DNA from: Bacteroidales bacterium
GTDB lineage: Bacteria > Bacteroidota > Bacteroidia > Bacteroidales > UBA1715
Assembly (NCBI GenBank): GCA_045599365.1
Contig: JAZRVS010000032.1
Coordinates: forward strand, 236-64,235
Reading direction: 5' to 3'
Length of the DNA stretch: 64,000 nucleotides
Position numbers and translations under genes: made by a program. Positions 45,087-64,000 of the stretch are shown one piece after another. How positions within the stretch are numbered: the first letter of the stretch is position 1; each line of letters begins with the position of its first letter. Below the pieces are notes generated by a model, which saw only the letters and a list, made by a program, of their open reading frames with translations, did not search any database and was not told the DNA's origin.

Positions 45087-45091
45087 TTGAA

Positions 45092-46256: not shown

Positions 46257-46275
46257 CTCGGTTTTATGTGGACGT

Positions 46276-47058: not shown

Positions 47059-47069
47059 ATTATATAGAA

Positions 47070-47399
47070 ATGGATTACAAAAAATCAAAAGCTCCATCAT
47101 CAACGATTACGAGAGAAGTTGAGACTTTGGAAAAAGGTACAAACAACATCTACGAATCGATTGCTATTATTGCCAAACGTGCTGATCAAATTGAAACAGA
47201 TTTGAAAAAGGAACTTGACAATAAATTGGCTGAATTTGCGTCTGTAAACGATTCTATGGAGGAAACGTTTGAAAATCGTGAACAAATAGAGATTTCAAAA
47301 TTCTACGAAAAATTGCCAAATCCAGTTCTTATGGCAATAGAAGAATTTCTTGAAGATCAAATTTACTATAGAAAACCAGTAGAAGAAACTGAAGCATAG
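47070..47399 (+). CDS. rpoZ: RNA polymerase omega-subunit-like protein
   Basis: NIYESIAIIAKRADQI resembles the RpoZ N-Y-x-L-x3-A-x-KRA-x-Q motif. Start at the ATG at 47070. Confidence 0.6.
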   Translation: MDYKKSKAPSSTITREVETLEKGTNNIYESIAIIAKRADQIETDLKKELDNKLAEFASVNDSMEETFENREQIEISKFYEKLPNPVLMAIEEFLEDQIYYRKPVEETEA

Positions 47400-48591: not shown

Positions 48592-48656
48592 TACGAAATT
48601 TGTGTCGGTAACTCCATTATTTTCTGTGTTATTATGGATATTCCCAATAATATGTG

Positions 48657-48664
48657 TAACTTTG
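48657..48664 (+). promoter_or_regulatory. candidate -7 element TAACTTTG for the polysaccharide operon (long leader)
   Basis: This was the only TAnnTTTG match noticed by eye in the 48592-48826 gap. It would give a ~155-nt leader before upxY, and long leaders are usual for UpxY-controlled operons. Confidence 0.35.
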
Positions 48665-48826
48665 TATGTTGCACAACGATTCATTTGGTATGGCTTACCA
48701 ACGTGGACTTTTTATGATTGAATTATAAGAAATTTTGTTGTAGTAAGAAAATACACATTGATAGTCGTGTAAAATTGACTAAAATAAAGATTGTCCTTTT
48801 AATCTCAGCTGGATAGCAGATTAAAA

Positions 48827-49423
48827 ATGATAGATGAGATGGTTGAAATTCCTTCAATAGAACCCTCTGCTTCTGCAGGCGGGTGTCCCCAAGATGTGTC
48901 CATATCCGACAGTAGGTGGTATGTCATGCGTGTTACTTACAGTCGCGAGTTGAAGGCAATGCAATTATTGCAAAACTTTGGTGTGGAATGTTATGTGCCT
49001 ATGCTTTGTGTGAGAGATGGCATGGGTAAACACTTTGTCCCAGCTGTACATAATCTTATTTTTGTACATACAACACGTGATGTCCTTGATGAGTGTAAAC
49101 GTCAGATGGAGTTGGTGTGTCCGATGCGTTATATGATGGACAAATCAACAGGTCTTCCGATGGTGGTAAAAGACAAGGAAATGGCAGATTTTATGTGGGT
49201 TACAGAAAATAATAATGCGGATGTTTTTTATTTGGATAATCCATCGGTAGTGTGTGTAAAGGGTACTCCAATAGAGGTGATTGGTGGACCATTCAAAGGT
49301 TTGCGTGGTAGATTACTTCGTATAAGACGAAATCGCAAGGTGGTACTACAATTAGTGGGGCTTGTTGCTGTTGCAATAGATGGTATCCCTATTGAGTGTT
49401 GTAAAGTAATATTAGATGATTGA
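48827..49423 (+). CDS. UpxY-family NusG-like transcription antiterminator
   Basis: RWYVMRVTYSRELKAMQLLQNFGVECYVPM (NGN domain) and a C-terminal KOW-like IEVIGGPFKGLRGRLLRI. It is the first gene of a one-strand glycan locus. Confidence 0.8.
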   Translation: MIDEMVEIPSIEPSASAGGCPQDVSISDSRWYVMRVTYSRELKAMQLLQNFGVECYVPMLCVRDGMGKHFVPAVHNLIFVHTTRDVLDECKRQMELVCPMRYMMDKSTGLPMVVKDKEMADFMWVTENNNADVFYLDNPSVVCVKGTPIEVIGGPFKGLRGRLLRIRRNRKVVLQLVGLVAVAIDGIPIECCKVILDD

Positions 49424-49480
49424 TTATCTTCTATAATTACCCTCTTATTTTCACTCTTTATATAGAAAAATGAAACTATA

Positions 49481-50857
49481 ATGTATATTAAAATGGATAA
49501 ACTATTTGAATTTCACGAGTTGTATTCACACGAGACTGATGTGTACAACTTGACGGGTTTTAAGCCCCAAATTGTTGATGCAGGGTATCTGAAGAATATT
49601 GGAGTAAGTGTTGAACCCTCCGAAGCGACCCTGCAAGGGCTTATTCGCGGCTCAAAAATTTTCATGCAAAGATTGGAAAACCATACGGTTATCCCAGTCT
49701 CAAAGCTTTATCTTGAGCAGTGTGTGCCAGAGGAAATCCAGACCGAGATACACAACTACACAGGTCGTTGTCCGACACTTACTTTCGAGGTCAATCCAAT
49801 CAAGGGTTGCAACGTGGGATGCCAGTACTGTCTTGTCACCGATGGCGTGCATGAACAAAAGCTGGTGGCATACGAAAACTACCACGAGTATGTGCGTTAC
49901 CTTCTCAAGGTGATGAACGGCACTCCTACATGCGAAGTGACACAAGATGACCTGACACAACGTGCCAATTTACTCAAAGAACTAGCGGATGCCATAGAGT
50001 CTGCACCAGAAAAGAAGAAAGGAATTGAGGCAAAGATTGTGGAACTGAGCCGTGGCAAGAACTGGAACCACTACTACTATTTCTCGCCAAAAACCGAGGC
50101 ATTCCAGGAACCGACCCTCCAGACAGGCATTGCACACCGCATATTGCGTGAGTTTATAGCACATTTTGAGGAATACCCCGATTCAAACGCACGCCTGTTC
50201 ATAGCATCCAAGGCGGGAGCAAAGCATCTGCTTGTCAAAGACGAGCAAGGAGTTACCATTCTCGATTTGTTGGAACAACTCAAAGACCGCTGCCAGTTCA
50301 ACACCTCTGTCAGCATCATGCCTACCGAGTTCCGCAACCTGCTTGAGCCATACGCTGCCCCTATCGAGGAGCGTCTGAAAGCTGTCAAGATGTGTCAGGA
50401 GCGTGGCATCCCTGCCAATTCGGCACTGGTTCAACCTATCTTCACGCCGTACCTGACAGACGAGCATATCAAGGAGTTCTTCGACATGCTGCACGATGCC
50501 GGTATCATCAACTACAAACCAGAGTTCCTTACTGCCTGCATGGAGAACCTTGCACAGTTGGGTCAGTGGTTGGGCTATTTCGACAAGAGTATGGAGAAGG
50601 CACTCTACGAGGATTACATCATGCCTCAGAATGCCGACCACCGCAAACAGCGCGGACGTACAGCTCCCAACCGTGCATTGAGTACTGAAAACATTCAGCG
50701 ACTTATGAAATACACGGACTCTATCGGTATGAGTACCAGCATCTGCTTCTGGGTCCGCAAGATGCTGAACATAAGCACTGATATGATACCGATCATCAAC
50801 AGGAACGGTTTCCAATGCTTGGGCTATCAGTCAAAGCTTTTCAAGTGTAAGGAGTAA
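49481..50857 (+). CDS. radical-SAM protein, unknown function (SPL/COG1533-like layout)
   Basis: CX3CX2C motif GCNVGCQYC at aa 110-117 (DNA 49808-49831). The downstream pattern YFSPKTEAFQEP...FIASKAG...SVSIMP...LEPYAAPIEERLKAV...GIPANSALVQPIFTPY resembles the DNA-photolyase-like radical-SAM family. Confidence 0.7.
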   Translation: MYIKMDKLFEFHELYSHETDVYNLTGFKPQIVDAGYLKNIGVSVEPSEATLQGLIRGSKIFMQRLENHTVIPVSKLYLEQCVPEEIQTEIHNYTGRCPTLTFEVNPIKGCNVGCQYCLVTDGVHEQKLVAYENYHEYVRYLLKVMNGTPTCEVTQDDLTQRANLLKELADAIESAPEKKKGIEAKIVELSRGKNWNHYYYFSPKTEAFQEPTLQTGIAHRILREFIAHFEEYPDSNARLFIASKAGAKHLLVKDEQGVTILDLLEQLKDRCQFNTSVSIMPTEFRNLLEPYAAPIEERLKAVKMCQERGIPANSALVQPIFTPYLTDEHIKEFFDMLHDAGIINYKPEFLTACMENLAQLGQWLGYFDKSMEKALYEDYIMPQNADHRKQRGRTAPNRALSTENIQRLMKYTDSIGMSTSICFWVRKMLNISTDMIPIINRNGFQCLGYQSKLFKCKE

Positions 50858-50864
50858 TATTGTC

Positions 50865-51479
50865 ATGTGGTATGCAGGTTGTCTTAAAAGACTGATGGAT
50901 TTCACTATTGCTGCCGTTGCATTGGCTGCCTTATCGTGGCTGATGGTCGTGGTGGCTCTGCTGTTGCATTTTGCAAATCATGGTGCAGGCATCCTGTTCA
51001 TTCAGGATCGCCCAGGGAAAGACGGAAAGATTTTCCAGCTCTTCAAGTTCAAGTCCATGACCGATGAGTGCGACAGCCACGGCAACCTGCTTCCGAACAT
51101 GGAACGGCTGACCCCCATCGGGAAGTTTATCCGCAGCACAAGCATTGACGAACTGCCTCAGCTACTAAATGTCTTGAGAGGAGATATGGCACTGGTTGGC
51201 CCTCGCCCTTTGCTGGCAAGATATCTGCCCTACTACACGGAACGTGAACGCTTGCGCCATAGCGTCAGACCAGGCATCACAGGATGGGCTCAGGTGCATG
51301 GACGCAACGACCTGCCTTGGAATGAGCGGCTGGAGTTGGACGCTTGGTATGCTGAACACGTGTCGTTCGAACTTGATTGCAGGATTGCATGGATGACCAT
51401 AATAAAAGTAATACGTCACAAGGGGACGAGTATCGAGAAACTTGTTCCATTGGACGTGGAAAGAAAAGAAAAAACATGA
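50865..51479 (+). CDS. small monotopic phosphoglycosyl transferase (bacterial sugar transferase, PglC/WbaP C-domain type)
   Basis: A re-entrant helix, then FIQDRPGKDGKIFQLFKFKSM and IDELPQLLNVLRGDMALVGPRP. Confidence 0.9.
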   Translation: MWYAGCLKRLMDFTIAAVALAALSWLMVVVALLLHFANHGAGILFIQDRPGKDGKIFQLFKFKSMTDECDSHGNLLPNMERLTPIGKFIRSTSIDELPQLLNVLRGDMALVGPRPLLARYLPYYTERERLRHSVRPGITGWAQVHGRNDLPWNERLELDAWYAEHVSFELDCRIAWMTIIKVIRHKGTSIEKLVPLDVERKEKT

Positions 51480-52546
51480 AAATATTGATTACCGGCGCGT
51501 GTGCCGTTACCGCACGCACAATACTGAGAGGACTCAAGATGAGTCCTGAATTTGGGAATGCCGAGTTTATAGGTTGGGACATGTGCGGATTGTTGTATGG
51601 AGTGTACTCCAAGGCATTCGACAAGATGTACAAGGTGCCTGGGGTGAGCGACCCTATATACGAAGAGGTCGTCAGGAAGATACTTGCCGACGAACGTCCG
51701 GATGCCGCCATTATCGTGCCTGAAGTAGAGGTGCGATATTGGGCAAACCACGAGCTGGGTGTGCCTTGTCTGCTGCCTCCCGGCAAATTCGCCGATATTG
51801 CCGTTTGCAAGGACAAGCTGTTTGCCGCCCTTAGGGATACAGACCTCGTGCCAAGTCATTTCAATGCATCTGCCAGTGAAATCAAGTCGCTGGACTTCAA
51901 CAACACGCTGGGCTTCCCTGTCTGGATACGCGACGGAGCGGCCGGCACGGCTTCGGCACGTGGAGCGTTCAAAGCACATTCCAACGACGACCTTCGTGCC
52001 TGGGTGCAGGTGAACAACGGAATAGACATGTTCCAGCTGTCCGAATATCTGCCGGGAAAGATTTACGCCTGCGTGTGCCTCTACAAGAATGGTGTACTGA
52101 AGAAAGTGTGCCTCAGCCAGCGCATTGAATACATCATGTCCAAAGTGGCGGTATCCGGAATTACAGGCAATATATGCAAGGGCAAGCTCATCAACGACCG
52201 AAAAGTGGTTGACACGGCCATACGAACCATCGAGACACTTTGCGCTCAGACGGGGGAAGTTCCGAACGGCATCATTGATGTGGATATGCGTGACGATGTG
52301 AATGGCAATCCCAAGGTGACCGAAATCAACATGCGCTTCCTTTCGTTCAGTTCCGTGTTTGCTTCGGCAGGCTGGAACCTGTTCGAGGATCTTGTGAAAC
52401 TGACGCTGAACCGCGACGACGAGGTGTCGCCCCAGCTAGAGAAGCAATTCCCCGAAAGCAACTGGATTCTGCGCGATGTAGATGGTGAGCCCGTCTATGT
52501 GGAGAATCCTGTGGAGCTGAAGATGGGCGAGTGCTTCCGCAAATAA
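51476..52546 (+). CDS. ATP-grasp-fold enzyme
   Basis: MKILITGA..., a central glycine-rich region, and the late motif KVTEINMRF (E-x-N-x-R of ATP-grasp). The start ATG overlaps the upstream stop as ATGA. Confidence 0.65.
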   Translation: MKILITGACAVTARTILRGLKMSPEFGNAEFIGWDMCGLLYGVYSKAFDKMYKVPGVSDPIYEEVVRKILADERPDAAIIVPEVEVRYWANHELGVPCLLPPGKFADIAVCKDKLFAALRDTDLVPSHFNASASEIKSLDFNNTLGFPVWIRDGAAGTASARGAFKAHSNDDLRAWVQVNNGIDMFQLSEYLPGKIYACVCLYKNGVLKKVCLSQRIEYIMSKVAVSGITGNICKGKLINDRKVVDTAIRTIETLCAQTGEVPNGIIDVDMRDDVNGNPKVTEINMRFLSFSSVFASAGWNLFEDLVKLTLNRDDEVSPQLEKQFPESNWILRDVDGEPVYVENPVELKMGECFRK

Positions 52547-52560
52547 ACGATGTCAAGGAA

Positions 52561-53661
52561 ATGACCAGGATTGTTTTCATATTGAATACGCTCACCCAGC
52601 CACTCTGTTTCAAGCGCATCGAGGAGTTCCGGCGCAGGGGCTACCAGACTGACGTGTATGGCTTCAGTTCCGATTCGCAGGATACAGTCATCCGAAGCAG
52701 TGACATAGTGCAAGTCATAGGAACTTGTGTGCATGGGGAAGGCAACTATTTCCGCCGGTTGCTGACGATGGTGAGAGCCATCCGCAAATTGAACCGCAGG
52801 TATAGGAATGAGGACGTAACATTCTATTATTTTCAAATGGACACCTGCATTGCAGCACGATTGGTAAGCAGAAAGCCATATATATACGAGAACTACGATT
52901 TGGTGTACGGAGCGTTCCCCAATCCTTTGAAATGGATGTTCCGTCACATTGACAGGTGGCTGACCATTCATTCCGTAGCCACCGTAATGACCTCTCCTGG
53001 TTTTCAAGAATATCTATTTCGTGGGAAACACCAAGACAACGTATATATCATTCCCAACAAACTCAATCCGCGTGTATTGGGGTACCCTTACCATCCTACC
53101 GACCTCGACATTGCACATATTCGCTTTGCGTTTGTAGGTCATATACGTTCGGCTGGTTCCTTCAGATTTGCCAAAGTGGTGGCAGAAAGGTTTCCCCAGC
53201 ACTCTTTCCACTTATACGGCACAATAGGCAAGGGTAACGACTTTGCTGGACTGGCGGACCGCCATCCGAACGTGGTGATGCATGGCTCTTTCCAAAATCC
53301 AGACGACTTGCCGGGAATCTATGAACAGGTGGACGTGCTTGTCCCCTTGCTTAGCGAGAACAACACGAAGAATGTCAACAACATCTATTTGGAACCAAAC
53401 AAATTGTATGAATCGGTCTATTTCAGGACTCCCATCGTAATGACAGACGGCACCTATATGGCCCGGAGGGTGAAGGAACTGAACTGCGGGTTCGTGTTGC
53501 CTGACGTATCAGAAGAGGGAATAACCCGTTTCATCAACTCCCTTACCGAGCAATCGCTGAAAGAGATTGTGACACATATTTCAACCATTCCTCAAACCGA
53601 TGCCGTGGATGATTATGCCGGTTTCTTTGAATTTCTGAACAGCAAACTAACCAAATTATAA
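52561..53661 (+). CDS. GT-B-type glycosyltransferase
   Basis: 366 aa. MTRIVFILNT... N-domain, FAFVGHI... start of the C-domain and an EPNKLYES donor-binding-like motif. Confidence 0.55.
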   Translation: MTRIVFILNTLTQPLCFKRIEEFRRRGYQTDVYGFSSDSQDTVIRSSDIVQVIGTCVHGEGNYFRRLLTMVRAIRKLNRRYRNEDVTFYYFQMDTCIAARLVSRKPYIYENYDLVYGAFPNPLKWMFRHIDRWLTIHSVATVMTSPGFQEYLFRGKHQDNVYIIPNKLNPRVLGYPYHPTDLDIAHIRFAFVGHIRSAGSFRFAKVVAERFPQHSFHLYGTIGKGNDFAGLADRHPNVVMHGSFQNPDDLPGIYEQVDVLVPLLSENNTKNVNNIYLEPNKLYESVYFRTPIVMTDGTYMARRVKELNCGFVLPDVSEEGITRFINSLTEQSLKEIVTHISTIPQTDAVDDYAGFFEFLNSKLTKL

Positions 53662-53671
53662 ATTGCAAACA

Positions 53672-54877
53672 ATGAAATATGTAATAGACATACAGGATCC
53701 ATGGCCAGAACCATTCTGCATAAAAATCAGGAACAGGTTGTTTCGGAAATTGCTGTACCCTCCTCTGGCCAAATATGCCGATAGAGTCTATCGCAAGGCC
53801 GATGGAGTGGTGGCGGTATCGGAAACTTACCTGAAGTGGGCTGCACAGTTCAACCATAGCGCGGACTTATGGCTGTCTGTGTTTCTGGGGAAGGACTCGG
53901 CATTGTTTGACAAATACAGGAAGGAAAATGTCTTTCAACGGAACGACAATGAGCTGTGGATTGCGTATGCCGGCTCACTCAGTTACAGTTACGACCTTCC
54001 GACTGTGATAGATGCGCTTGCCTTGCTCTCTCAGCGTCAGGGAGCCGACTTACCACCTGTGCGCCTTGTTGTTATGGGAGACGGACAACTGCGTTCACAA
54101 TATGAGGCATACGCCAAGGCACACGGCATTGCCGCCGAGTTTACCGGCATGTTGCCATATCCCCAAATGGTAGGCAGGCTCTGTGCCTGCGACATCTGTG
54201 TGAATCCCATCATTATGAGCAACCGTGGCAGCATTATCAATAAGGTAAGCGATTATGCGCTGGCAGGTTTGCCTGTAGTCAATTCGCAGAATTGCGACGA
54301 ATACCGCCAGATGATAGCGCGTTATGGATGCGGCATAAACTGCGAATGTGAAAACAGCGCGGAAATGGCTGACGCCATCGGAAAGTTGGCATCGGACGCA
54401 AATCTCCGCCGTACTATAGGTGAGAACTCCAGAAGAATGGGTGAAGAGTGTTTCGACCGCCGGAGCATCTATCCGCATATTGTGGATGCCCTGGCAGGGT
54501 ATGGTGCAAAAAAGGTGATGATTGTAGCCAATTTCCACCCCACCCTCAACGGTTCCACCGAAGGAAGGTTCACCTATCTGGCACAGATGCTTCATGAGCA
54601 GGGCTTTGATGTGGAGCTGGTGGTGTCGGACTTTGAACACCGCACGAGAAAACGCCGTGAATCGCTGTCCAATCCTTATCCGTTCAAACTCACCTATCTT
54701 CACGAACCTGGTTACAGCAACATTGTATCTGTACGGAGAATGTGGAGCCATTATGTGTGGGGATGCAATGTCGGGAAATACCTGAAATCGTGCAAGGACA
54801 AGCCTGATGTGGTCTATGTGTCCGTGCCATCGCTAACGGCAGCAAGGAAGGTGTCATTTATATGTAAAAACAAGTAA
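53672..54877 (+). CDS. GT4 (WbuB-like) glycosyltransferase with apparently circularly permuted sequence order
   Basis: Aa 1 to ~280 begin at the mid-N-domain motif DIQDPWPE and run through a full C-domain. Aa ~282-402 (VMIVANFHPTLNGSTEGRFTYLAQMLHEQGFDVELV...PDVVYVSVPSLTAA) look like the first ~125 aa of a canonical GT4. Confidence 0.55.
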   Translation: MKYVIDIQDPWPEPFCIKIRNRLFRKLLYPPLAKYADRVYRKADGVVAVSETYLKWAAQFNHSADLWLSVFLGKDSALFDKYRKENVFQRNDNELWIAYAGSLSYSYDLPTVIDALALLSQRQGADLPPVRLVVMGDGQLRSQYEAYAKAHGIAAEFTGMLPYPQMVGRLCACDICVNPIIMSNRGSIINKVSDYALAGLPVVNSQNCDEYRQMIARYGCGINCECENSAEMADAIGKLASDANLRRTIGENSRRMGEECFDRRSIYPHIVDALAGYGAKKVMIVANFHPTLNGSTEGRFTYLAQMLHEQGFDVELVVSDFEHRTRKRRESLSNPYPFKLTYLHEPGYSNIVSVRRMWSHYVWGCNVGKYLKSCKDKPDVVYVSVPSLTAARKVSFICKNK

Positions 54878-54882
54878 GCATC

Positions 54883-55485
54883 ATGGATAACAAAGGAAAA
54901 AAGAAATTGAGCCTTTCCTTCAGGTTGCTGCGCCGGATGGGGTTCAACTATTCCGAAGATGAGTATGGGGATGTCTCGCTGTGGAAGGTTGTGAAACGTG
55001 TCTGTACCACCTACCGTAACATGTTTCTGCAAGGCCCAATTATGAACGGCTGGCTGTTGTCGCCGTTACAGCCCAGACGTCTCCGTGCATGGGGAATGAG
55101 GAAGATGGGCTGCCATGTTGGCAAGGGCTGTTTTATAGGCAACCATGTGCGTCTTGACTCCGGCCATGCCGATATGATAACGTTGGAGGACAATGTGACA
55201 ATAACATCTGGAGTCCACCTGCTCTGCCATCAGCGTGATATTTCGGATTATTGTGCGGGTGATGACTATATGAAACTTGGCTATGTCGTCAAACCCATTG
55301 TCCTGAAGAAGGGTTGCTCAGTGGGAATAGAGAGTGTGGTGATGCCAGGTGTCACCATAGGCGAAGGGGCAATTGTAGGTGCAGGTTCACTGGTAACGAA
55401 AGATATTCCGGCATGGACGGTGGCTATGGGACGACCCGCCAAGGTTGTCCGCCAGATACCGGAACGTAAAGGTTTAATGGTTTAA
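54883..55485 (+). CDS. hexapeptide-repeat (LbH) acetyltransferase
   Basis: Left-handed beta-helix repeats and C-terminal VGAGSLVTKDIPAWTVAMGRPAKVV. Confidence 0.8.
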   Translation: MDNKGKKKLSLSFRLLRRMGFNYSEDEYGDVSLWKVVKRVCTTYRNMFLQGPIMNGWLLSPLQPRRLRAWGMRKMGCHVGKGCFIGNHVRLDSGHADMITLEDNVTITSGVHLLCHQRDISDYCAGDDYMKLGYVVKPIVLKKGCSVGIESVVMPGVTIGEGAIVGAGSLVTKDIPAWTVAMGRPAKVVRQIPERKGLMV

Positions 55486-55502
55486 AGGTTATAGGTTTAA
55501 TG
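55468..55502 (+). repeat. 8-bp tandem array A (AAGGTTTA-type, about 4 units)
   Basis: aaaggtttaatggtttaaaggttataggtttaatg. It contains the last 5 codons and the TAA of the acetyltransferase, and the ATG of the next gene. Confidence 0.85.
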
Positions 55503-56363
55503 AATATATTGACATTCGATATAGAGGAGTGGTATATGAAAGTTGTCAAAATGGGATGGCGCGACAAACGTGCCGAGTACGACCGTTATTTCCATCGCAT
55601 CCTCGACAAATTGGATGAACGAAGCCTGAAGGCTACCTTCTTCTGTTTGGGTGAGATGGGGAGGCTTTTCCCTGAAACGGTTCTTGAGATTGACCGTCGC
55701 GGACATGAGGTTGGCTGTCATTCCAATGTTCACCTTCCGCTCAACACCCTGACAAAGGAAGAATGTCTTGACGATACGAGAAAGGCCCTGGATTCGCTGG
55801 AACAATGTCTTGGGAAGAAGATAATCAGTTACCGTGCGCCGGCATTTTCTGTTGGAGAAGAGAACAGGTGGATGTTTTCCGTCCTTACGGAGTGTGGCAT
55901 AGAGCGTGACTCGTCTGTATATCCTGCCCGTAGGGATTATGGCGGCTTTCCGGATTTCGGAACACAAAGGCCTGCTTTGATAAAGGTAGGCAACAGTTTC
56001 ATCAAGGAATTTCCCATACCGCTGGCAATGGTCGCCGGAAAGCAGTTTGCCTATTCTGGGGGCGGTTATTTCAGGGTACTCCCATACGGATTTATCCGCA
56101 GGCAGATGATGAAGTCGGACTACACTATGACTTATTTCCATCTGGACGACCTGCTTCCGGAATCGAAAGGGGTGATGAGTGCCGAAGAGTACCGTATGCA
56201 CTTCAACAAACCCGGAACACTCATCGAACGCTACAGACGTTGTTTCAGGGCCAACGTCGGGAAGAAAGGTGCCATGGACAAACTGATGCGCCTGCTTGAC
56301 GAAATGGATTTCATCGGACTGTCTCAGGCCGATGGGCAGATAAAACATTGGGATGTGATATGA
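55500..56363 (+). CDS. polysaccharide deacetylase family protein (DUF3473-type)
   Basis: MNILTFDIEEWY start, ATFFCLGE and CHSNVH motifs. Confidence 0.8.
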   Translation: MNILTFDIEEWYMKVVKMGWRDKRAEYDRYFHRILDKLDERSLKATFFCLGEMGRLFPETVLEIDRRGHEVGCHSNVHLPLNTLTKEECLDDTRKALDSLEQCLGKKIISYRAPAFSVGEENRWMFSVLTECGIERDSSVYPARRDYGGFPDFGTQRPALIKVGNSFIKEFPIPLAMVAGKQFAYSGGGYFRVLPYGFIRRQMMKSDYTMTYFHLDDLLPESKGVMSAEEYRMHFNKPGTLIERYRRCFRANVGKKGAMDKLMRLLDEMDFIGLSQADGQIKHWDVI

Positions 56364-56396
56364 ACCAAGCATCCAATAGCAGAATAAAAAGCCATA

Positions 56397-56825
56397 ATGA
56401 AGAATATGACTGTAAATGACTGTAAAATCATAGAGCTGCCAAAGATTGTTGACCCAAGAGGGAATCTTTCTTTTGTAGAGACCTTCAGGCATGTTCCATT
56501 TGAAATCAAGCGGACATACTGGATTTATGACGTTCCCGGAGGAGAAAACCGTGGAGGTCACGCTTTTCGCAATAATCAGGAATTTGTGATTGCTCTCTCG
56601 GGCGCCTTTGACGTGGTTGTGGATGATGGCAAGGAAAAGAATACTTTCACTCTCAACCGTTCTTACTATGGACTATATATCCCTGCCGGTCTTTGGCGTA
56701 CAATGGAGAATTTCTCCACCAATTCACTGGCTCTGGAGTTCGGATCGATAAAGTATGACCGTGAGTCTGATTACATAGAAGAGTACGAACAATTCCTAAA
56801 ACTGAAGAGCAATGGCGAAATATAA
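56397..56825 (+). CDS. WxcM/FdtA-like sugar 3,4-ketoisomerase (cupin)
   Basis: IELPKIVDPRGNLSFVE...IKRTYWIYDVPGGENRGGHAFR. Confidence 0.8.
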   Translation: MKNMTVNDCKIIELPKIVDPRGNLSFVETFRHVPFEIKRTYWIYDVPGGENRGGHAFRNNQEFVIALSGAFDVVVDDGKEKNTFTLNRSYYGLYIPAGLWRTMENFSTNSLALEFGSIKYDRESDYIEEYEQFLKLKSNGEI

Positions 56826-57231
56826 TGTATTTGATTGCTCGATGGTAGAGCTTGACAAACATCATAGTGAACGCAAGGGTAATCTCACTGTGGTGGAGAA
56901 TGGCAACAGCATTCCGTTTGACGTGAAGAGGGTTTATTACCTTTATGATGTCCCTGGAGGAGAGAGCCGTGGTTCGCACGCTCATCGTGAACTTGAGCAG
57001 CTGATAATTGCGGCATCAGGCTCGTTCAAAGTCACCTTGGATGACGGCAAGTGCAAGCGAACGTTTTTCCTGAACCGTCCCTATCAGGGCTTATATGTCA
57101 GGCTTGGAATATGGCGTGATTTGGAAGACTTCTCTTCCGGCTCAGTGTGTATGGTACTGGCCAGTGATGTATATCAGGCAGATGATTACATTCGTGATTA
57201 TGGTGAATTCCTTCGCTTTCGCGAGGGATAA
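56812..57231 (+). CDS. second WxcM/FdtA-like cupin paralogue
   Basis: VELDKHHSERKGNLTVVE...VKRVYYLYDVPGGESRGSHAHR. It overlaps the previous gene by 14 nt. Confidence 0.8.
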   Translation: MAKYNVFDCSMVELDKHHSERKGNLTVVENGNSIPFDVKRVYYLYDVPGGESRGSHAHRELEQLIIAASGSFKVTLDDGKCKRTFFLNRPYQGLYVRLGIWRDLEDFSSGSVCMVLASDVYQADDYIRDYGEFLRFREG

Positions 57232-57264
57232 GGGTTTAAAAGTTTAATGTTTAAAAGTTTAAAG
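57231..57264 (+). repeat. 8-bp tandem array B (left flank of the four-helix-bundle gene)
   Basis: agggtttaaaagtttaatgtttaaaagtttaaag. It begins within the fdtA-like TAA stop and ends at the ATG at 57265. Confidence 0.85.
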
Positions 57265-57645
57265 ATGGGGAAAGATAAGAAGTTTGCATTTGAAAATCTT
57301 GAAGCTTATAAGGTTGCTCGTGTCCTTGTAAGGGACGTTTATCGTCTTCAAGACAAATTTCCGAAAGAAGAACGATACGCTCTTGGTGATCAGATTAGAC
57401 GCTCTTCTACATCTATTACAAGCAATATAGCCGAAGGAGCGGGTCGCAATTCTTATAAAGAAAAGATACATTTTGTAGAGATTGCTTTCGGAAGTATGAC
57501 TGAATGTTTTAGCCAACTTCAAAATGCCCAAGACTTAGGCTATATTCGTGATGAAGAAGTAGAAGCCTTACGCCCTCAATTCAATCATGTGGCGGCTTTA
57601 CTTTCGCTTCTGAAGAGGAGCTATGAAGAAAAGCTAAACTCATAA
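57265..57645 (+). CDS. four-helix-bundle protein (23S rRNA intervening-sequence protein / Avd-like family)
   Basis: FENLEAYKVARVLVRDVYRL...FPKEERYALGDQIRRSSTSITSNIAEGAGRNSYKEKIHFVEIAFGSMTECFSQL is a close match to the family signature. Confidence 0.85.
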   Translation: MGKDKKFAFENLEAYKVARVLVRDVYRLQDKFPKEERYALGDQIRRSSTSITSNIAEGAGRNSYKEKIHFVEIAFGSMTECFSQLQNAQDLGYIRDEEVEALRPQFNHVAALLSLLKRSYEEKLNS

Positions 57646-57679
57646 ACCCTTAAACCTTTAAACCTTTAAACTTTTAAAC
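57643..57679 (-). repeat. 8-bp tandem array C (right flank, opposite orientation)
   Basis: taaacccttaaacctttaaacctttaaacttttaaac is the reverse complement of the GGTTTAAA-type units. It is followed by the small hairpin GTGCggcaGCAC (57680-57691) and an orphan unit cttaaaccttta (57693-57704). Confidence 0.85.
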
Positions 57680-57708
57680 GTGCGGCAGCACACTTAAACC
57701 TTTATAAA

Positions 57709-58167
57709 ATGATACACCCTTTAGCCGACTGTAAATGTCCGAATATACCGGAATCCACCAATGTGTGGCAGTTCTGTGTGATTTTCCCCAAGGCTACCAT
57801 AGGGGAAAATTGTAACATCTGCTCCCATTGTCTCATCGAGAATAAAGCTGTTATTGGAAACAATTGCGTTATCAAGTGTGGCGTACAGATTTGGGACGGA
57901 ATCACGCTTGAAGACAATGTAATGATAGGAGCCAATGTCTCCTTTACCAACGATATGTACCCAAGGGCTCACAATAAAGATTGGAAGATGTTACCGACTC
58001 GTGTTTGCAAAGGCGCAAGCATAGGTGCTGGTGCAACGATACTTCCAGGTCTAACCATTGGCGAAGGGGCTATGGTTGGTGCCGGATCTGTTGTAACCAA
58101 AGACGTCCCTGCCGGCGAAATGTGGGCTGGTAATCCTGCAAGGTTCATGAAGAAAGTTGAAAAGTAA
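57709..58167 (+). CDS. hexapeptide N-acetyltransferase, FdtC/QdtC (WxcM C-terminal)-like
   Basis: LbH repeats ([44 protein letters not shown]), in context with fdtA-like and aminotransferase genes. Confidence 0.75.
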
Positions 58168-58171
58168 AGAG

Positions 58172-59323
58172 ATGATACCTTTCCTTTCATTAAAAGACGT
58201 TACCGCTCTTCACGGTGCGGAAATCAATGAGGTCGTAACTCGTGTCGTGAACAACGGTTGGTATCTTCAAGGAGTTGAAAACGAGAAGTTCGAGAAAAAC
58301 TATGCCGACTACATCGGCACAAAATACGCCATCGGTTGTGCAAACGGTCTGGATGCCCTCATCTGGATATTCCGTGCGTACATCGAGATGGGCGTGATGA
58401 AGCCAGGTGATGAGGTGATAGTTCCTGCAAACACCTACATAGCAACCGTTCTTGCTATCACGGAGAACGGTCTTGTACCTGTGCTTTGCGAGCCGAAGCT
58501 TAATACTCTTGAGATTGATGATGACCTGATAGAAGACCTCATCACTCCGAAGACAAAGGCCATTGCGGTTGTGCATCTCTATGGACGCATTGCCATTACT
58601 CCTAAGATTCTGGAACTTTGCAAGAAGTACAATCTGAAACTTGTGGAGGACAATGCTCAGGCTCACGGATGCGTATATGCTCCTACCGGTCAAAGGACTG
58701 GAAGCATTGGTCACGCTGCTGGTCATAGCTTCTATCCCGGGAAGAACCTTGGTGCTCTTGGTGATGGTGGTGCTGTTACCACCAATGATCCCGAACTGGC
58801 AGCAGCCGTTCGTGCATTGGCGAACTATGGCTCTTACAGGAAATACGTGTTCAAATACACTGGCCGAAACAGCCGTTTGGACGAAATCCAGGCAGCAGTT
58901 CTTGATGTCAAGCTCAAGTATCTGGAAGAGGACAATGCAAAGCGCAAGGCAGTGGCTCACTACTACTATGAGCATATCAACAATCCTTTGATTACCCTTC
59001 CTGACCATCTGCCTGATGAGCAGTGTGCTTATCATCTCTTCCCAATTATCGTTCATGACCCTTCCCTTTCGGGAGGGGACGGGGGTAGGCTTCGTGACCG
59101 TTTGCACGACTATCTGGCAGATAATGGTGTGGGTACTGTGATTCATTATCCTATTGCTCCTCATAAGCAGGAGTGTTATGCGAAAGAGTCGTGGAATGTT
59201 CCTCAACTGTCTTTGCCAATAACGGAGAAGATTGCCGTTGAGGAGTTGAGTCTGCCTATCGGGCCGGCAATTACGATAGAGGAAGTGAAGGAAGTCGTCA
59301 ATTTACTTAATCTTTTCGTATAA
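58172..59323 (+). CDS. DegT/DnrJ/EryC1/StrS-family sugar aminotransferase (FdtB/QdtB-like)
   Basis: MIPFLSLKD...GWYLQG...HLYGR...[15 protein letters not shown] (PLP-lysine region). Confidence 0.9.
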
Positions 59324-59333
59324 GATAGCAGTA

Positions 59334-60875
59334 ATGACCGATCAATTATCCAGTTCGAAACGTTTGGCGAAGAACACCCTGATGTTATACTTCAGGATGA
59401 TCCTCACAACAGTTGTAAGTCTCTATACCAGCAGAGTTGTTCTTCAGACACTCGGAGTATCAGACTATGGCCTATACAGTGTGGTCGGTGGTTTTGTCTC
59501 TATGCAGGGGGTACTGAACTCACTTTTTATCAGTTCCACCCAACGATATATGGCCTTTGCATTAGGCAAAGGAGAGCAAAGTCAAGTAGAACGGGTGTTT
59601 TCAAATTCTGTGGTTATTCAACTATGTATTGCAGGCATTGTATTTATTGTTGCAGAGACTTTTGGTTTATGGTTCGTCAACAACAAGTTGGTAATTGAAC
59701 CGACAAGAATGGTGGCGGCAAACTGGGTATATCAGGCTGCCGTTCTCTCAATGGTCATCAATATCATTAGCATACCATACAATTCCTGTATCATTGCCCA
59801 TGAGCATATGGATATTTATGCCTATGTGAGTATTATTGATGTGCTAATGCGTTTGGGTATCGTATTTTTGATTCAGATAATTCCCTTCGACAAACTCATA
59901 TCGTATTCGATACTTTTAGTGATGGTTGCGGTAACAATTCGTCTCTGCTACACCATATATAGCAAAAGGAAATTTGAGGAATGCCGGACAAAGAACCATT
60001 TCAGGAAGTTTGACAAACCATTGTTCAAAGAAATGTTCGCTTTTGCAGGATGGAGTTTTCTCGGCTCCATGGGATTCTCTTTTAAGGACCAGTTCTCCAA
60101 TATGATGCAGAATATGTTCTTTGGAACAACTGTCAATGCAGCACGTGGTCTGGCTATGAGGGTGAGTTCTGTAGTGACATCTTTCTCAAACAATTTTATG
60201 ATGGCTTTGAATCCTCAAATTACAAAGCAATACGCATCAGGAGATAAAACACAATATCAGAAATTGGTTTTCACCGGGTCAAGACTATCCTTCTATCTGC
60301 TTTCGATTATCGCAATTCCGGTTTTGACCAACTTAGACTATCTATTAGGGTTATGGTTAGTGGAAGTTCCACAATATACTGACATCTTCATCAATATTTC
60401 GCTTTTTTCAGCCTTGGTTTACTCGTTGTCGCAAGGAACAACGACTGCAATATTTGCGACAGGAAAGATAAAGGCATTTGAGATAGGTATTTCAATAATT
60501 CTTCTTGCTGAATTGCCAATCGGTTATGTGTTGCTAAAATCAGGCTATCCACCTTATGCTGCAATGCTTCCTGCATTTTTGACTCAACCTGCTGGACTTG
60601 TATACCGTTTTATCCTGCTAAAGAAGAATGAACCTTCATTCAGTTATAAGTACTATTTCATCAACATAGTTCTTCGGGCATTTATATTGTTCGCCATAGG
60701 ATATGCGGCTTCCAAATTTATTGCGGATTTGATGGGGCCAAGCATCTGGGGGTTGTTATGCAACGTTGCAATCAGTGTGATGCTATACGCGTCAATTCTC
60801 CTTATCGGTGGGATGGATAAAAACGAGAGGAAAATAATAATTGAGCTCGTAAGAACGAGAGTGGTAAGGGGGTAA
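59334..60875 (+). CDS. wzx: Wzx-type polysaccharide flippase (MOP superfamily)
   Basis: 513 aa, about 12-14 TM helices, N-terminus RLAKNTLMLYFRMILTTVVSLYTSRVVL. Confidence 0.8.
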   Translation: MTDQLSSSKRLAKNTLMLYFRMILTTVVSLYTSRVVLQTLGVSDYGLYSVVGGFVSMQGVLNSLFISSTQRYMAFALGKGEQSQVERVFSNSVVIQLCIAGIVFIVAETFGLWFVNNKLVIEPTRMVAANWVYQAAVLSMVINIISIPYNSCIIAHEHMDIYAYVSIIDVLMRLGIVFLIQIIPFDKLISYSILLVMVAVTIRLCYTIYSKRKFEECRTKNHFRKFDKPLFKEMFAFAGWSFLGSMGFSFKDQFSNMMQNMFFGTTVNAARGLAMRVSSVVTSFSNNFMMALNPQITKQYASGDKTQYQKLVFTGSRLSFYLLSIIAIPVLTNLDYLLGLWLVEVPQYTDIFINISLFSALVYSLSQGTTTAIFATGKIKAFEIGISIILLAELPIGYVLLKSGYPPYAAMLPAFLTQPAGLVYRFILLKKNEPSFSYKYYFINIVLRAFILFAIGYAASKFIADLMGPSIWGLLCNVAISVMLYASILLIGGMDKNERKIIIELVRTRVVRG

Positions 60876-60965
60876 GGGGGTAAGGGTTTAAAGGTTTAAA
60901 GGTTTAAGGGTTTAAGGGTTTAAAAGTTTAAAGGTTTAAAGGTTTAAAGGGTTTAAGGGGTTAAA
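60863..60965 (+). repeat. 8-bp tandem array D (about 12 units; GGTAAGGG variants grading into GGTTTAAA/GGGTTTAA)
   Basis: ggtaagggggtaagggggtaagggtttaaaggtttaaaggtttaagggtttaagggtttaaaagtttaaaggtttaaaggtttaaagggtttaaggggttaaat. It spans the wzx stop and runs to the ATG at 60967. Confidence 0.9.
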
Positions 60966-60966
60966 T

Positions 60967-61986
60967 ATGAAAATAAGTATAATGCTTACCAGTTATAATC
61001 TGGTAGATTACATTGATACTTCAATAGCGAGTGTCGTTAACCAGGAGATGCTTTGCGATTGGGAACTGCTGATAGGCGATGACGGCTCCAACGATGGAAC
61101 TGTCGAGAAAATAAAAGCCTGGATTGAAAAGTACCCGGAGAATATAAAGCTGTTTCAGATACCAAGGGATTTATCCTCCTCAAAGGTGGGCTCACGCGCA
61201 GCAAATAACCGGGCTTTGCTATTGGAGAATGCAACTGGAGACTACTTGAACTATCTTGATGGCGATGACTGCTGGTTGGGAACAGAGAAACTGAAAACTC
61301 AAATCGAAAAGTTGGAAAGTCCTGAATATGCAGAATGCTCCTGTTGCGGCCACAACATTGAAGCATACGTCATACAAGAAAACAGAAGATATGCAATGAT
61401 GCAACCTGTAGATAGAGAATCAATCATTATTCCAAAGTTCAGGTATGAGGGCTCGTGCTATATTCATACGAATACCATAGTGTTCCGTAAGTGCTGCAAG
61501 GAGAAACTTCTGAATTCGCTCTACCGCAACTTTCTCAATGACATATTTATTACATTCCTGATTCTTCAATACGGTCCAATGCTGTATCTACCAAAGGTTT
61601 GGGCGCGTTACAATATGACCGGGAACGGTCTTTGGACCGGTAACAACCCCGTGTATGGATGTTTTCGGAATCTGCAATTGCTTGATTTGAAATTATATGA
61701 GGCCCCTGATTTGAGGAGACGGATATTGCTTTCCCATAGAATGGATGTTGTAAAAATAACGAAGCATTACAAGACGGATGATTTTCCTGTCATTGAACCA
61801 TTGTTTGACAAACTGGATGAAAAGATATTCAAGTATTCTTTCCTGTTTTCCAAAATTTCAAATGTCACCATAATTGACAGAATCGTGAAATTTCGGATGC
61901 TTGTCGAAATGAATTTTCTGTGTTACAAACGTGCTCTTACGACAAAGTTAATCAGTATATTTAGATGCAAATATGAAGGCAAGTGA
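60967..61986 (+). CDS. GT2-family glycosyltransferase
   Basis: ISIMLTSYNLVDYIDTSIASVVNQ...LLIGDDGSNDGT...YLDGDD. Confidence 0.85.
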   Translation: MKISIMLTSYNLVDYIDTSIASVVNQEMLCDWELLIGDDGSNDGTVEKIKAWIEKYPENIKLFQIPRDLSSSKVGSRAANNRALLLENATGDYLNYLDGDDCWLGTEKLKTQIEKLESPEYAECSCCGHNIEAYVIQENRRYAMMQPVDRESIIIPKFRYEGSCYIHTNTIVFRKCCKEKLLNSLYRNFLNDIFITFLILQYGPMLYLPKVWARYNMTGNGLWTGNNPVYGCFRNLQLLDLKLYEAPDLRRRILLSHRMDVVKITKHYKTDDFPVIEPLFDKLDEKIFKYSFLFSKISNVTIIDRIVKFRMLVEMNFLCYKRALTTKLISIFRCKYEGK

Positions 61987-63178
61987 ATGCATAGATAATA
62001 TCCTGAAACCCTTCAGTGGTGACGGTTGGCAGGTGAATTTCCTGGTATCAATGGTATGGGGTGCGGTAATCGTAACTTATCTGAATGCCATTTTTATCAG
62101 GCTGCCATTTTATGACGTTGTCTGGCAATATATAATCCCTGCATTGTACATCACCGTCATAGCATTGTGCTCAGGGCATTTCATAAAATTGCTGTCACCA
62201 GGTGACTATCTGTTCTGGGGTTTTCTTTCACTGGTGTATTTTGCCTATTATTTGTTTGGGCCAGACCGGAATGCCAGTTATATGCAGGAATACATGCCCG
62301 CCTTTTTTTTGACGGTGACATCTTATTATTTCATGGGGAAAGTTGTCGATGACGATGTGTTCGATATGTTGTACTGGCTGTCGATATTGACGATATTCCT
62401 AAGGGTTGTTTCTACATTTATCACTCACAGTTTTGCAGAGGCTGTTCTGTCAAACGACACTCAGGAATTTCAAGGTCAGGCCTACGAATTGCTGGTTTTC
62501 TCCCTGTTTGTTTTATGGTACCTGCTCAAAAAATTCAACATCGTATCCTTATTGTTCTCTGTTTTAAGTATATCTGTTCTGTTCGCCTTTGGTTGCAGGG
62601 GTGCCATACTTTGTGTGGTTTCTTTCATTATCTTATACCTGTTGCTGGTCAAAAGATTGATTCGGAATGTACCGTTGTTGATAATATGTCTTTCTGTATG
62701 CGGTATCTGCGTCCTGTTTGCCAATCAGATAATCACGGGTACGAGTGCAGTAATGGAAAACCTTGGTTTCAGCACCCGCATTTTTGATTTTTATTTAGAT
62801 GATGATATTTTGAATGACACGGGAAGGGATCGGATTCGAACGCTATTGTTTGATGAATTGCAGGAGCATCAATTCGGACTTGGAATATGCGGGGCTCAAG
62901 GTGCGATAGGGTCATATTCACACAATTTTATACTCGAGTTCATAGTATCTTTCGGATGGGTGTTTGGAAGTTTGATTTGCGTGGGTGTGTTCTTTATTTT
63001 GTTCAAGGGATTCAATGCCTGCGCCAATGATGAACAGCGGGGATTTTTTCTCGTTCTATTCTGTGAGTCAGTTATTCACCTGTTTGTGTCGGATATAGTT
63101 TGGAAGGAACAATTCTTTTATATGCTATTAGGTTATTGTGCAATGTTGATTGGCCGGCAAAAGGATTTAAAGGTTTAA
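61973..63178 (+). CDS. wzy: Wzy-like O-antigen/capsule polymerase (polytopic membrane protein)
   Basis: 401 aa, about 10 TM helices, a loop with GICGAQGAIGSYSHNFILE, and placement next to wzx and GTs. Confidence 0.6.
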   Translation: MKASECIDNILKPFSGDGWQVNFLVSMVWGAVIVTYLNAIFIRLPFYDVVWQYIIPALYITVIALCSGHFIKLLSPGDYLFWGFLSLVYFAYYLFGPDRNASYMQEYMPAFFLTVTSYYFMGKVVDDDVFDMLYWLSILTIFLRVVSTFITHSFAEAVLSNDTQEFQGQAYELLVFSLFVLWYLLKKFNIVSLLFSVLSISVLFAFGCRGAILCVVSFIILYLLLVKRLIRNVPLLIICLSVCGICVLFANQIITGTSAVMENLGFSTRIFDFYLDDDILNDTGRDRIRTLLFDELQEHQFGLGICGAQGAIGSYSHNFILEFIVSFGWVFGSLICVGVFFILFKGFNACANDEQRGFFLVLFCESVIHLFVSDIVWKEQFFYMLLGYCAMLIGRQKDLKV

Positions 63179-63209
63179 AGGTTTAAAGGTTTAAAGGTTT
63201 AAAAGTTTA
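63161..63209 (+). repeat. 8-bp tandem array E (6 units)
   Basis: aaggatttaaaggtttaaaggtttaaaggtttaaaggtttaaaagttta. It includes the last 5 codons (KDLKV) and the TAA of the wzy-like gene. Confidence 0.9.
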
Positions 63210-63215
63210 TTTGAT

Positions 63216-64000
63216 ATGGACAAACCTCTTGTAACAATCGGTGTGGTTTCATACAACTCGGCTGGCACTATAGTCGAGACACTTGAAAGCGTGAAAGACC
63301 AGACTTATGGGAATATAGAACTGATAATATCTGATGATGCATCCAAGGATAACACCGTAGAGGTATGCCGTGATTGGCTTGAAAGAAATGCATCGCGTTT
63401 TTCAAGAGTGGAGTTAATCACAACAGACGTAAATACAGGCACTTGCGGAAACTGCGACAGGCTTCTTGAAAAAACAACCGGGCTGTGGTTGCGCATTTTG
63501 GCTGCGGATGACATATTGTTCGCTACAGCTGTCGGAAAATTCATTGAATATGCTGCTGCCAATCCGGAGGCTCAGTGGATTTTTTCGAAAGCAAAGTGCT
63601 ATAAGCATTCATTCAAAAAGGATAATTATCTGCCGGAAAGAAATCGTCACTATCTGTTATCAAAGTTTCCTGCATTTTTTACATTATCTGCAAGAGAACA
63701 ATACTTGAAACTTATTCATATTAACGTATTGTACCCGCCGGCAGATATTGTCCTGACAGATGCTCTTCGAAACGTCGGAGGCTTCGAGGCGAAATACGGT
63801 TTGAACGAAGATATTGTCAAGGGTATCAAACTCAGCAAGGCGGGAATCAAGTGCCATTTATTAGACGATTACACAATGGGGTATCGTATGGGAGAAAGCA
63901 ATGTCTGCTCAAATACAACACGCTTGTTCAATCTCAAAAGCCTTGAAAGTTCCTTATCGATTCGGAAAGGATTGTGCTGGGACGATACTCCATGGAATCT
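63216..64000 (+). CDS. GT2-family glycosyltransferase, 5' part (continues beyond window end)
   Basis: Own translation from the ATG at 63216: MDKPLVTIGVVSYNSAGTIVETLESVKDQTYGNIELIISDDASKDNTVEVC...LAADD. The frame is open to base 64000. Confidence 0.8.
   Translation, partial: MDKPLVTIGVVSYNSAGTIVETLESVKDQTYGNIELIISDDASKDNTVEVCRDWLERNASRFSRVELITTDVNTGTCGNCDRLLEKTTGLWLRILAADDILFATAVGKFIEYAAANPEAQWIFSKAKCYKHSFKKDNYLPERNRHYLLSKFPAFFTLSAREQYLKLIHINVLYPPADIVLTDALRNVGGFEAKYGLNEDIVKGIKLSKAGIKCHLLDDYTMGYRMGESNVCSNTTRLFNLKSLESSLSIRKGLCWDDTPWN

Follow-up and report, generated by a model that had tools for sequence, protein, structure and literature searches.

The analysed window is a stretch of 64,000 nucleotides (nt) from a Bacteroidales bacterium (contig JAZRVS010000032.1). 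It contains a polysaccharide locus, headed by a NusG/UpxY-like gene, with a sugar-biosynthesis operon whose genes were assigned by Pfam to FdtA (two copies), a hexapeptide transferase and a DegT aminotransferase. Between fdtA2 and fdtC of this operon lies the element studied here, a cassette of 477 nt (57232-57708) with a gene of the four-helix-bundle or S23p family (PF05635/TIGR02436), which is named after a few copies inside 23S ribosomal RNA (rRNA). The cassette, its arms and both host genes are on the plus strand. The upstream host fdtA2 (56812-57231; PF05523, E 1.8e-53) is the second of two FdtA-like 3,4-ketoisomerase genes, and the downstream host is an fdtC-like hexapeptide acyltransferase gene (57709-58167; Pfam Hexapep, E 4.3e-22). 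The content of guanine and cytosine (GC) is 0.44-0.51 at about 50-60 kb of the window and about 0.34 in the remaining window; the central part of the polysaccharide locus, including the cassette, looks horizontally acquired.

The left arm of the cassette, GGGTTTAAAAGTTTAATGTTTAAAAGTTTAAAG (57232-57264), comprises 33 nt with about four G/T-rich 8-nt units of the GGTTTAAA / GTTTAAAA type (Tandem Repeats Finder: period 8, 3.9 copies) and occupies the entire spacer from the fdtA2 stop codon to the ATG of the four-helix-bundle gene. The open reading frame (ORF) of this gene (57265-57645) ends with the stop codon TAA at 57643-57645, and at this codon the right arm begins. The right arm TAAACCCTTAAACCTTTAAACCTTTAAACTTTTAAAC (57643-57679, 37 nt) consists of about 4.6 C/A-rich 8-nt units of the TTTAAACC type, which are the reverse complement of the left-arm units (period 8, 4.6 copies, 93% matches; inverted pairs I1-I8). 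Embedded in the right arm is the mini-hairpin GTGCggcaGCAC (57680-57691), which was read from the sequence and appears as a separate hairpin in the RNA fold, followed by the terminal unit ACTTAAACCTTTAT (57692-57705) and an AAA leader that closes the segment at 57708, directly before the fdtC ATG at 57709. Terminal unit and A-rich leader together form an A/T-rich upstream region for fdtC.

In a repeat search the region 57232-57264 pairs with 57649-57679 over 31 nt at 84% complementarity with a perfect core of 16 nt, and an outer inverted pair (I13) joins 57228-57239 with 57694-57705 at 92% complementarity, so that the outermost inverted repeat opens with the TAA stop codon of fdtA2 (57229-57231) as its first base triplet. 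With up to 2 mismatches allowed, 24 matches to the 14-mer GTTTAAAGGTTTAA lie in the window where 1.8 are expected, a count reached in none of 100 shuffles, and these matches are confined to five arrays, the two cassette arms and three more at 55467-55500, 60881-60965 and 63160-63209. The original prediction, made from the sequence of the window, had described at 57231-57705 a gene between oppositely oriented repeat arrays with a hairpin and a terminal unit, and had read this as a discrete cassette with long imperfect inverted repeats at its ends; all elements were confirmed at their positions, and only the length of 127 amino acids (aa) has to be corrected, as the ORF coordinates are right and the 127 codons include the stop, leaving a protein of 126 aa.

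The protein scores above both family cut-offs (PF05635: E 4.8e-35, 120.4 bits vs 33.8; TIGR02436: 110.3 bits vs 24) and matches PDB 2GSC with an E-value of 2.4e-21. It is near neutral, with an isoelectric point (pI) of 7.8 and 20 lysines plus arginines to 19 aspartates plus glutamates. The ratio of nonsynonymous to synonymous substitutions (dN/dS) is 0.12 against the closest relative, found in a locus designated L170, and 0.02-0.03 in two other pairs with estimable dS. The gene is under strong purifying selection. Exact-sequence look-up of the protein with either start codon returned no record, the PADLOC defence models gave no match, and close relatives were not found on IMG/VR viral contigs. 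A first search alone yielded 806 relatives, many from gut and rumen metagenomes, and the PF05635/TIGR02436 family, an orphan with no assigned function, is very large.

A metagenome scan for FdtC gave 80 loci, in 51 of which FdtA2 and FdtC are both present and adjacent. In these the FdtC homologues directly after FdtA2 are 70-80% identical, the two genes abut or overlap in all 51 cases, mostly by an ATGA overlap or with a gap of up to 12 nt, and none has a four-helix-bundle gene at the junction. Since FdtA2 and FdtC adjoin in 51/51 relatives, the 477-nt block is, judged by this comparison of loci, an insertion that separates FdtA from FdtC, in line with the original prediction. The one orthologous locus, L170, has the closest four-helix-bundle homologue (94% aa identity) at the equivalent FdtA1-FdtA2-[cassette]-FdtC site and in the same orientation. 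At the DNA level the window is 90% identical to L170 in FdtA1, 86% in FdtA2, 91% in the four-helix-bundle gene, 85% in FdtC and 92% over the aligned cassette region, which shows that the cassette diverged in step with its flanks. The arrays of L170 differ from those of the window in the units of the left array and in two extra hairpin modules in the right arm. The hairpin module, TTTAAAC-GYGC-loop-GCAC-TTAAAC, recurs in L170 (three copies), L083, L087 and L088, and the motif AAAC(A/C)TTTAYAA(n)ATG stands before the downstream host ATG in five contexts (window, L170, L080, L087 and L088).

Relatives of the cassette with 87-94% protein identity and the same kind of unit sit at six different junctions, namely FdtA2|FdtC, Epimerase_2|Polysacc_synt_2, HAD|APH, WecG|NUDIX, an integrative-element-like region and a phage-like region, from which we conclude that the family dispersed over evolutionary time. 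Units of the GGTTTAAA type persist in all six contexts and the hairpin module in most. For copies in different contexts with a protein identity of 87-90%, dS has reached saturation or is undefined. The prediction of a mobile cassette is therefore upheld for long-term dispersal, but not for recent mobility, with L170 holding the cassette at the same site. As part of the explanation that we put forward, we regard the cassette as an old resident of the fdtA2|fdtC locus that is neither recently mobile nor invertible, and we hold this with about as much confidence as doubt. The arrays themselves do change: in the cassette at WecG|NUDIX (P0008) the upstream array measures 33, 57 or 81 nt across samples with otherwise identical displayed sequence, and array copy number differs between strains by whole units.

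The same observations bear on the possibility of a non-autonomous DNA transposon, of the type of MITEs (miniature inverted-repeat transposable elements) or a repetitive extragenic palindromic (REP) sequence, in which the arms would be terminal inverted repeats for an enzyme encoded elsewhere and the gene cargo or an accessory. Long terminal inverted repeats, as in insertion sequences and MITEs, are present in the window, and the insertion relative to the 51 related loci, the occurrence of one clade at six junctions, the presence of ORF-less arm hairpins and of PDDEXK_3 genes in similar arms (see below) and an arm pairing without strand asymmetry would all fit. However, no direct repeat flanks the arms in the window sequence, i.e., a target-site duplication is not visible, and domain searches of the 64-kb window detected no encoded transposase, recombinase or reverse transcriptase. 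Near-identical copies were not found either, as dS is saturated between contexts. Furthermore, the arms vary by cassette, unlike the terminal repeats specific to one transposase, and the strong bias for sense orientation in operons is not expected of a DNA transposon. We therefore consider this explanation improbable.

Even less can be said for an invertible segment, an option that the original prediction had also named, which would be phase-variable, flip between the arrays and switch fdtC/fdtB expression. Inverted repeats of 31-37 nt are there, and invertible promoters are known from Bacteroidales polysaccharide loci. Against this, in 65 of 87 homologues the gene runs in the direction of both neighbours (median gaps 64 and 58 nt) and in only 3 is it antisense to the two, L170 shares the orientation of the window, and neither a recombinase gene nearby nor a promoter upstream of the ORF inside the segment was found. 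Scans for sigma-70-type and Bacteroidetes-type (TTTG...TAnnTTTG) promoters gave no promoter-like site from the fdtA2 stop to the four-helix-bundle ATG; the only plus-strand match lies inside the ORF (57518-57546), and the counts are at chance level. An intrinsic-terminator scan gave no site within or beside the cassette. Inversion is thus the explanation in which we have practically no confidence.

The architecture seen in the window was compared with that of the family in a genome scan of 79 loci with 87 homologues from Bacteroidales, Patescibacteria/Saccharibacteria, Proteobacteria and Saprospiraceae. Among the 86 genes outside the window, 63 carry tandem arrays (period 5-12) on both flanks, 18 on one and 5 on neither, so that 81/86 have an array on at least one flank, as expected from the original prediction. 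Within 150 nt of four-helix-bundle genes the array density is 6.4 per kb compared to 0.44 per kb elsewhere, an approximately 15-fold enrichment. The period is 7 in 83 and 8 in 17 of 102 arrays; the arrays adjoin the ORF (median 16.5 nt to the ATG and 11 nt past the stop) and have a median length of 30-31 nt. In 29 of 51 testable genes (57%) upstream and downstream units are reverse complements of each other, with at most 1 mismatch in any rotation, compared to 14% of non-cognate pairs; allowing 2 mismatches, this applies to 41/51 genes vs 41% of non-cognate pairs. The mean duplex energy of the flanks is -32.1 kcal/mol vs -21.0 kcal/mol for 414 other genes of those loci (Mann-Whitney p = 1e-14), and that of the arms -46.7 kcal/mol for cognate vs -34.8 kcal/mol for non-cognate pairs. 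As raw duplex energy is confounded by GC content, with some GC-rich control genes as low as cassettes, we give more weight to the unit-level reverse-complement test. The spacings of inverted array pairs are clustered at 300-600 nt. An ORF of at least 60 aa is enclosed by 85 pairs, and in 54 of these it is a four-helix-bundle gene, a census biased by the choice of loci for such genes; the other cargo consists of ordinary genes caught between arrays at successive junctions. No 23S rRNA signature motif was found beside any four-helix-bundle gene in all fetched loci.

The pattern is found also outside these groups. Three cyanobacterial plasmid copies have heptamer arrays flanking the gene in 3/3 cases. 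In Nostoc edaphicum (GGGAGTA)x9 upstream and (TCCCTAC)x5 downstream form an inverted pair, in Aulosira laxa (GAGTCAG)x3 upstream is accompanied by a short complementary stretch CTTCTGAATTC downstream, and in Pseudanabaena galeata (L179; NZ_CP112875.1 46268-46627) the gene is located between cas6 and cas4 of a CRISPR-Cas locus with the direct arrays (AAAGCTA)x15 and (AAAGCCA)x10. These data show that a small ORF between reverse-complementary arrays of 7-8-nt units is the usual condition of the PF05635/TIGR02436 family in ordinary operons of several phyla.

They also speak to a simple coincidence, in which short arrays would be spacers of a general kind and a small gene like any other was inserted between two of them. 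There are indeed many orphan arrays of 7- or 8-mers (about 0.26 per kb, with 216 in 61 loci), in this part of the operon every examined spacer of more than a few bases is an array, and the FdtA2|FdtC spacers of some relatives (L124, L165 and L095) hold short unit runs without a four-helix-bundle gene. Nevertheless, the enrichment beside four-helix-bundle genes, the frequency of the reverse-complement relation over that in non-cognate pairs, the clustered spacing with its predominant cargo and the recurrence in unrelated phyla make a chance arrangement very unlikely.

The unit sequences vary widely between cassettes (GTTTAGA, GTTGAGA, GTGTAGA, GAATCTG, GAAGCAA, AGTACAA and others), and neighbouring paralogues within one locus carry different units (L023, L048, L068 and L071). 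Unit similarity tracks protein similarity (83 genes; rho = -0.39; 0/300 permutations as extreme), with a shared unit in 36% of protein pairs that are 60-80% identical compared to 4-9% of distant pairs. For the window protein GGUUUAAA and GGTTTAAA would be cognate units and the AGTTTAG type non-cognate. Thus, each cassette has a repeat unit of its own, which follows the lineage of the protein. Since neutral flanks would be randomised at such divergence, this indicates that the arms are recognised by the protein or constrained in a lineage-specific way.

Outside the cassette its unit is present in three orphan arrays of the same operon, all forward. The first (55467-55500) fills a spacer between an acetyltransferase and a polysaccharide deacetylase gene. 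The second, (GGTAAGGG)x3 followed by (GGTTTAAA)x10.5 (60863-60965), lies between a flippase-like and a glycosyltransferase family 2 (GT2) gene. The third, (AAAGGTTT)x6.1 (63160-63209), overlaps the stop codon of a Wzy-like gene and ends 5 nt before the ATG at 63215. Together with the left arm these arrays lie between co-directional genes and end 0-5 nt before an ATG. In its low-GC part the window has two unrelated heptamer arrays: (AAGAGTT)x5.4 (22221-22264) between convergent ABC-ATPase and Band_7 genes, and TTAGTGA followed by (TTAAYTC)x11 (46089-46187) between polyprenyl synthetase and BamD-like genes. The original prediction had counted four further arrays; such arrays exist, but their number is three with the cassette unit plus these two. 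Its suggestion that they are scars or target sites found no support, the arrays being abundant and mostly of other units. A reading as excision scars was rejected, because recombination between inverted repeats inverts the ORF and cannot delete it.

The orphan arrays have a place in a further explanation, in which arrays are binding sites for the four-helix-bundle protein, the arms serving autoregulation and the forward orphan arrays marking a small regulon, e.g., under translational control. The tracking of the protein lineage by the unit despite saturated synonymous sites and the private units of paralogues within one locus fit this well. Moreover, orphan arrays match local cassette arms in 28% of cases compared to 10% for arms of other loci, the three orphan arrays of the operon carry the cassette unit immediately 5' of ATGs, and the homologue Avd, which is pentameric, binds both nucleic acid and reverse transcriptase. 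On the other hand, the protein is near neutral, 72% of the orphan arrays have no match to local arms, and binding alone leaves unexplained why the flanks are reverse complements of each other. Pure binding sites are therefore a possible but rather unlikely explanation. Somewhat wider is the proposal that S23p proteins and 7-8-nt arrays constitute a coupled, cassette-specific protein-repeat system across phyla, with lineage-specific recognition, the inverted arms as cis element and orphan arrays of the type known as short tandemly repeated repetitive (STRR) or TAACTGA sequences as trans targets or offspring; we put this forward tentatively, as an idea that is rather unlikely to be right.

What the arms may do can be approached by RNA folding. 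In the fold of 57222-57712 a stem of left and right arm closes the whole ORF in both the minimum-free-energy and the centroid structure, with a z-score of -3.97 and none of 100 shuffles folding as well; an alternative arm register gives 33 bp at -30.5 kcal/mol. We consider it an even question whether the segment 57232-57708 is an intervening-sequence-type S23p/four-helix-bundle cassette that resides in a protein-coding operon and not in 23S rRNA, and we prefer this to the other explanations. The cassette would be transcribed by read-through with the polysaccharide operon, for which the lack of promoter- and terminator-like sites and the predominantly co-directional position of the family speak, and in the transcript the two arms probably pair to a predicted stem of about 31-33 bp around the whole ORF. 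By analogy with the homologous elements of 23S rRNA, RNase III may cut this stem, which would set free the message of the four-helix-bundle gene and divide the operon mRNA. At the A/U-rich right end fdtC could have a new translation-initiation region in place of the stop/start overlap of the relatives. The protein, presumed pentameric like Avd, probably recognises the repeat arms of its cassette, in the form of RNA or DNA.

Several points weigh against this reading. Sense and antisense arm duplexes are equally stable (-32.1 vs -33.2 kcal/mol, Wilcoxon p = 0.25) and there is no strand asymmetry in G·U wobbles; therefore RNA-level selection is not distinguishable from complementarity at the DNA level. 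RNase III processing of the cassette would be an extrapolation from the rRNA elements. The right arm could also pair with any of the three orphan arrays of the operon, in competition with the left arm. About 10% of the family have direct arms (L023, L025 and Pseudanabaena) or arms of opposite polarity (L002). Finally, the S23p ORF of Coxiella burnetii seems untranslated and decaying, unlike the conserved gene of the window (PMC4990558).

Some observations in the scanned loci concern related arrangements. In 21 cases inverted array pairs are less than 100 nt apart with no ORF between them (L026:689-900, L061:4702-4852, L007:2911-3026, L047:7402-7550 and others), and these ORF-less arm hairpins are reminiscent of the short ORF-less intervening sequences of rRNA. 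Small genes of the PDDEXK_3 (GxxExxY) nuclease family are found inside inverted short-unit arrays at L028:9273-9650, L058:8813-9184, L058:10899-11273 (minus strand) and L080:3333-3707, with the units GCAGATAA, ACGAATY and CGAAAAACA, and thus the array-stem cassette is not exclusive to four-helix-bundle genes. Flanking each of two small GIY-YIG genes of a polysaccharide locus (L080:2898-3191 and L080:6575-6892), the 3' coding end of the upstream host gene is present as a direct duplication, an insertion signature distinct from array arms.

Numerous Bacteroidales genomes have a four-helix-bundle cassette between genes that, from their sequence alone, are apparently those of the flavoprotein and iron-sulfur subunits of fumarate reductase/succinate dehydrogenase (L017, L018, L019, L022, L033-L035, L039, L040, L043, L044 and L050). 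The upstream ORF ends with ...TRNYK, the downstream ORF begins with MDxYIDIKVRVWRQAGP, and the arm units vary by genome. Distant four-helix-bundle genes (40-50% identity) are located directly 5' of an FdtC-like acetyltransferase gene with no FdtA upstream (L020:6004-6372, L025:5995-6360 and L052:5998-6366); the arms of L020 and L025 are direct, not inverted.

Elsewhere in the window coaBC is split (47399-48591) into a Flavoprotein ORF (47399-47968) and a DFP ORF (48037-48591). The gene breaks where there is an A10 homopolymer (about 47954-47963), pointing to a frameshift or sequencing error. In the glycosyltransferase ORF 53663-54877 the domain Glycos_transf_1 (residues 88-258) precedes Glyco_transf_4 (304-389), the reverse of the usual GT4 order.

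The anatomy of an intervening sequence is not peculiar to rRNA, as operons of Bacteroidales, candidate-phyla-radiation bacteria, Proteobacteria and Cyanobacteria have it too. A connection thus emerges between three subjects hitherto considered apart, namely the intervening sequences of rRNA, the orphan "four helix bundle protein" genes scattered in polysaccharide, restriction-modification and CRISPR loci, and the abundant intergenic heptamer arrays of Cyanobacteria, Beggiatoaceae and Bacteroidetes. For annotation it means that such genes mark insertions which break translational coupling in operons and may impose mRNA processing sites. If the proposed protein-repeat system is real, it would provide a function for a very large orphan family and for a repeat class that has been unexplained for decades, and the intervening sequences of rRNA would be one special landing site of a general element.

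Among known systems, Avd of the diversity-generating retroelements has the homologous four-helix-bundle fold. The window protein scores far under the Avd cut-offs (NCBIfam Avd: E 8.4e-6, 26 bits vs 80; Pfam bAvd: E 2.6e-4, 21.9 bits vs 40), no RVT domain was detected in any window ORF of at least 120 aa, and no pair of template and variable repeats in the 64-kb window. Membership in a diversity-generating retroelement, to which the original prediction had pointed, was rejected on the sub-cut-off scores and the lack of a reverse transcriptase in the window. REP sequences and bacterial interspersed mosaic elements (BIME) with genes of REP-associated tyrosine transposases (RAYT) are dispersed short repeats in operon spacers, with the gene flanked by inverted repeat copies. 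They are comparable by analogy only, as the window protein has no HUH or tyrosine-transposase fold and REPs are single palindromes, whereas four-helix-bundle cassettes have tandem 7-8-mers with units differing within one genome. Integron gene cassettes are promoterless small ORFs, co-directional in a transcribed array, with an imperfect inverted-repeat (attC) boundary. Unlike these, the present cassettes have repeats on both sides of the ORF, arms of tandem short units, no integrase and no attI.

Closer to the arrays themselves are the STRR heptamers of Cyanobacteria, which reportedly go back to Mazel et al. in 1990. Direct-repeat arrays of the TAACTGA heptamer were described as intergenic in Beggiatoaceae, Cyanobacteria and Bacteroidetes (MacGregor 2015, PMC4679880). 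The arrays of the window agree with these STRR/TAACTGA arrays in being intergenic tandem units (7 nt there, 8 nt here) that are mostly forward and end a few nt before a start codon, and so do arrays of the window type in having stops in all three frames, a strain-variable length and an occurrence in Bacteroidetes and Cyanobacteria. The difference is that here reverse-complement pairs with cassette-specific units surround one gene family; the 2015 paper (PMC4679880) makes no mention of S23p/four-helix-bundle genes or of inverted array pairs. A description of the inverted-array architecture outside rRNA was not found in the open full-text literature, subscription-only papers not being covered.

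The closest resemblance is to the 23S rRNA intervening sequences with an S23p ORF, which are known from Coxiella burnetii, Leptospira, Xanthomonas, Brucella and Haemophilus and share the ORF family PF05635/TIGR02436 with the window cassette. What distinguishes the 23S elements is the insertion in 23S rRNA (helix 9, 25 or 45). The window cassette lies between two genes of a polysaccharide operon and not in helix 45 of 23S rRNA, and Rfam gave no match at E up to 1 and no rRNA nearby in the window region 45000-64000. The ORFs differ as well, that of the window being under strong purifying selection whereas that of Coxiella is reported to be decaying and is probably untranslated. The link drawn by the original prediction proved apt, and apart from the place in rRNA the window cassette shows every anatomical feature described for the Coxiella element. 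The Coxiella element is 428-444 nt long (the window cassette 477 nt), and its S23p ORF is enclosed by terminal inverted repeats that form a 28-bp stem with an RNase III cut in mid-stem; excision by RNase III has been shown for the Coxiella, Leptospira and Salmonella elements (PMC4990558). Immediately 5' of the Coxiella ORF stand three tandem GACAGAT heptamers of strain-variable copy number (PMC4990558), which corresponds to the tandem repeats directly upstream of the ORF and their variable copy number in the cassette family. An enclosing terminal stem of about 28-33 bp is common to both, in the window as predicted from the inverted arms and the fold. We rate the window cassette, of a kind undescribed outside rRNA in the searchable literature, as an S23p element of the intervening-sequence type that resides in an mRNA operon and carries cassette-specific arms.

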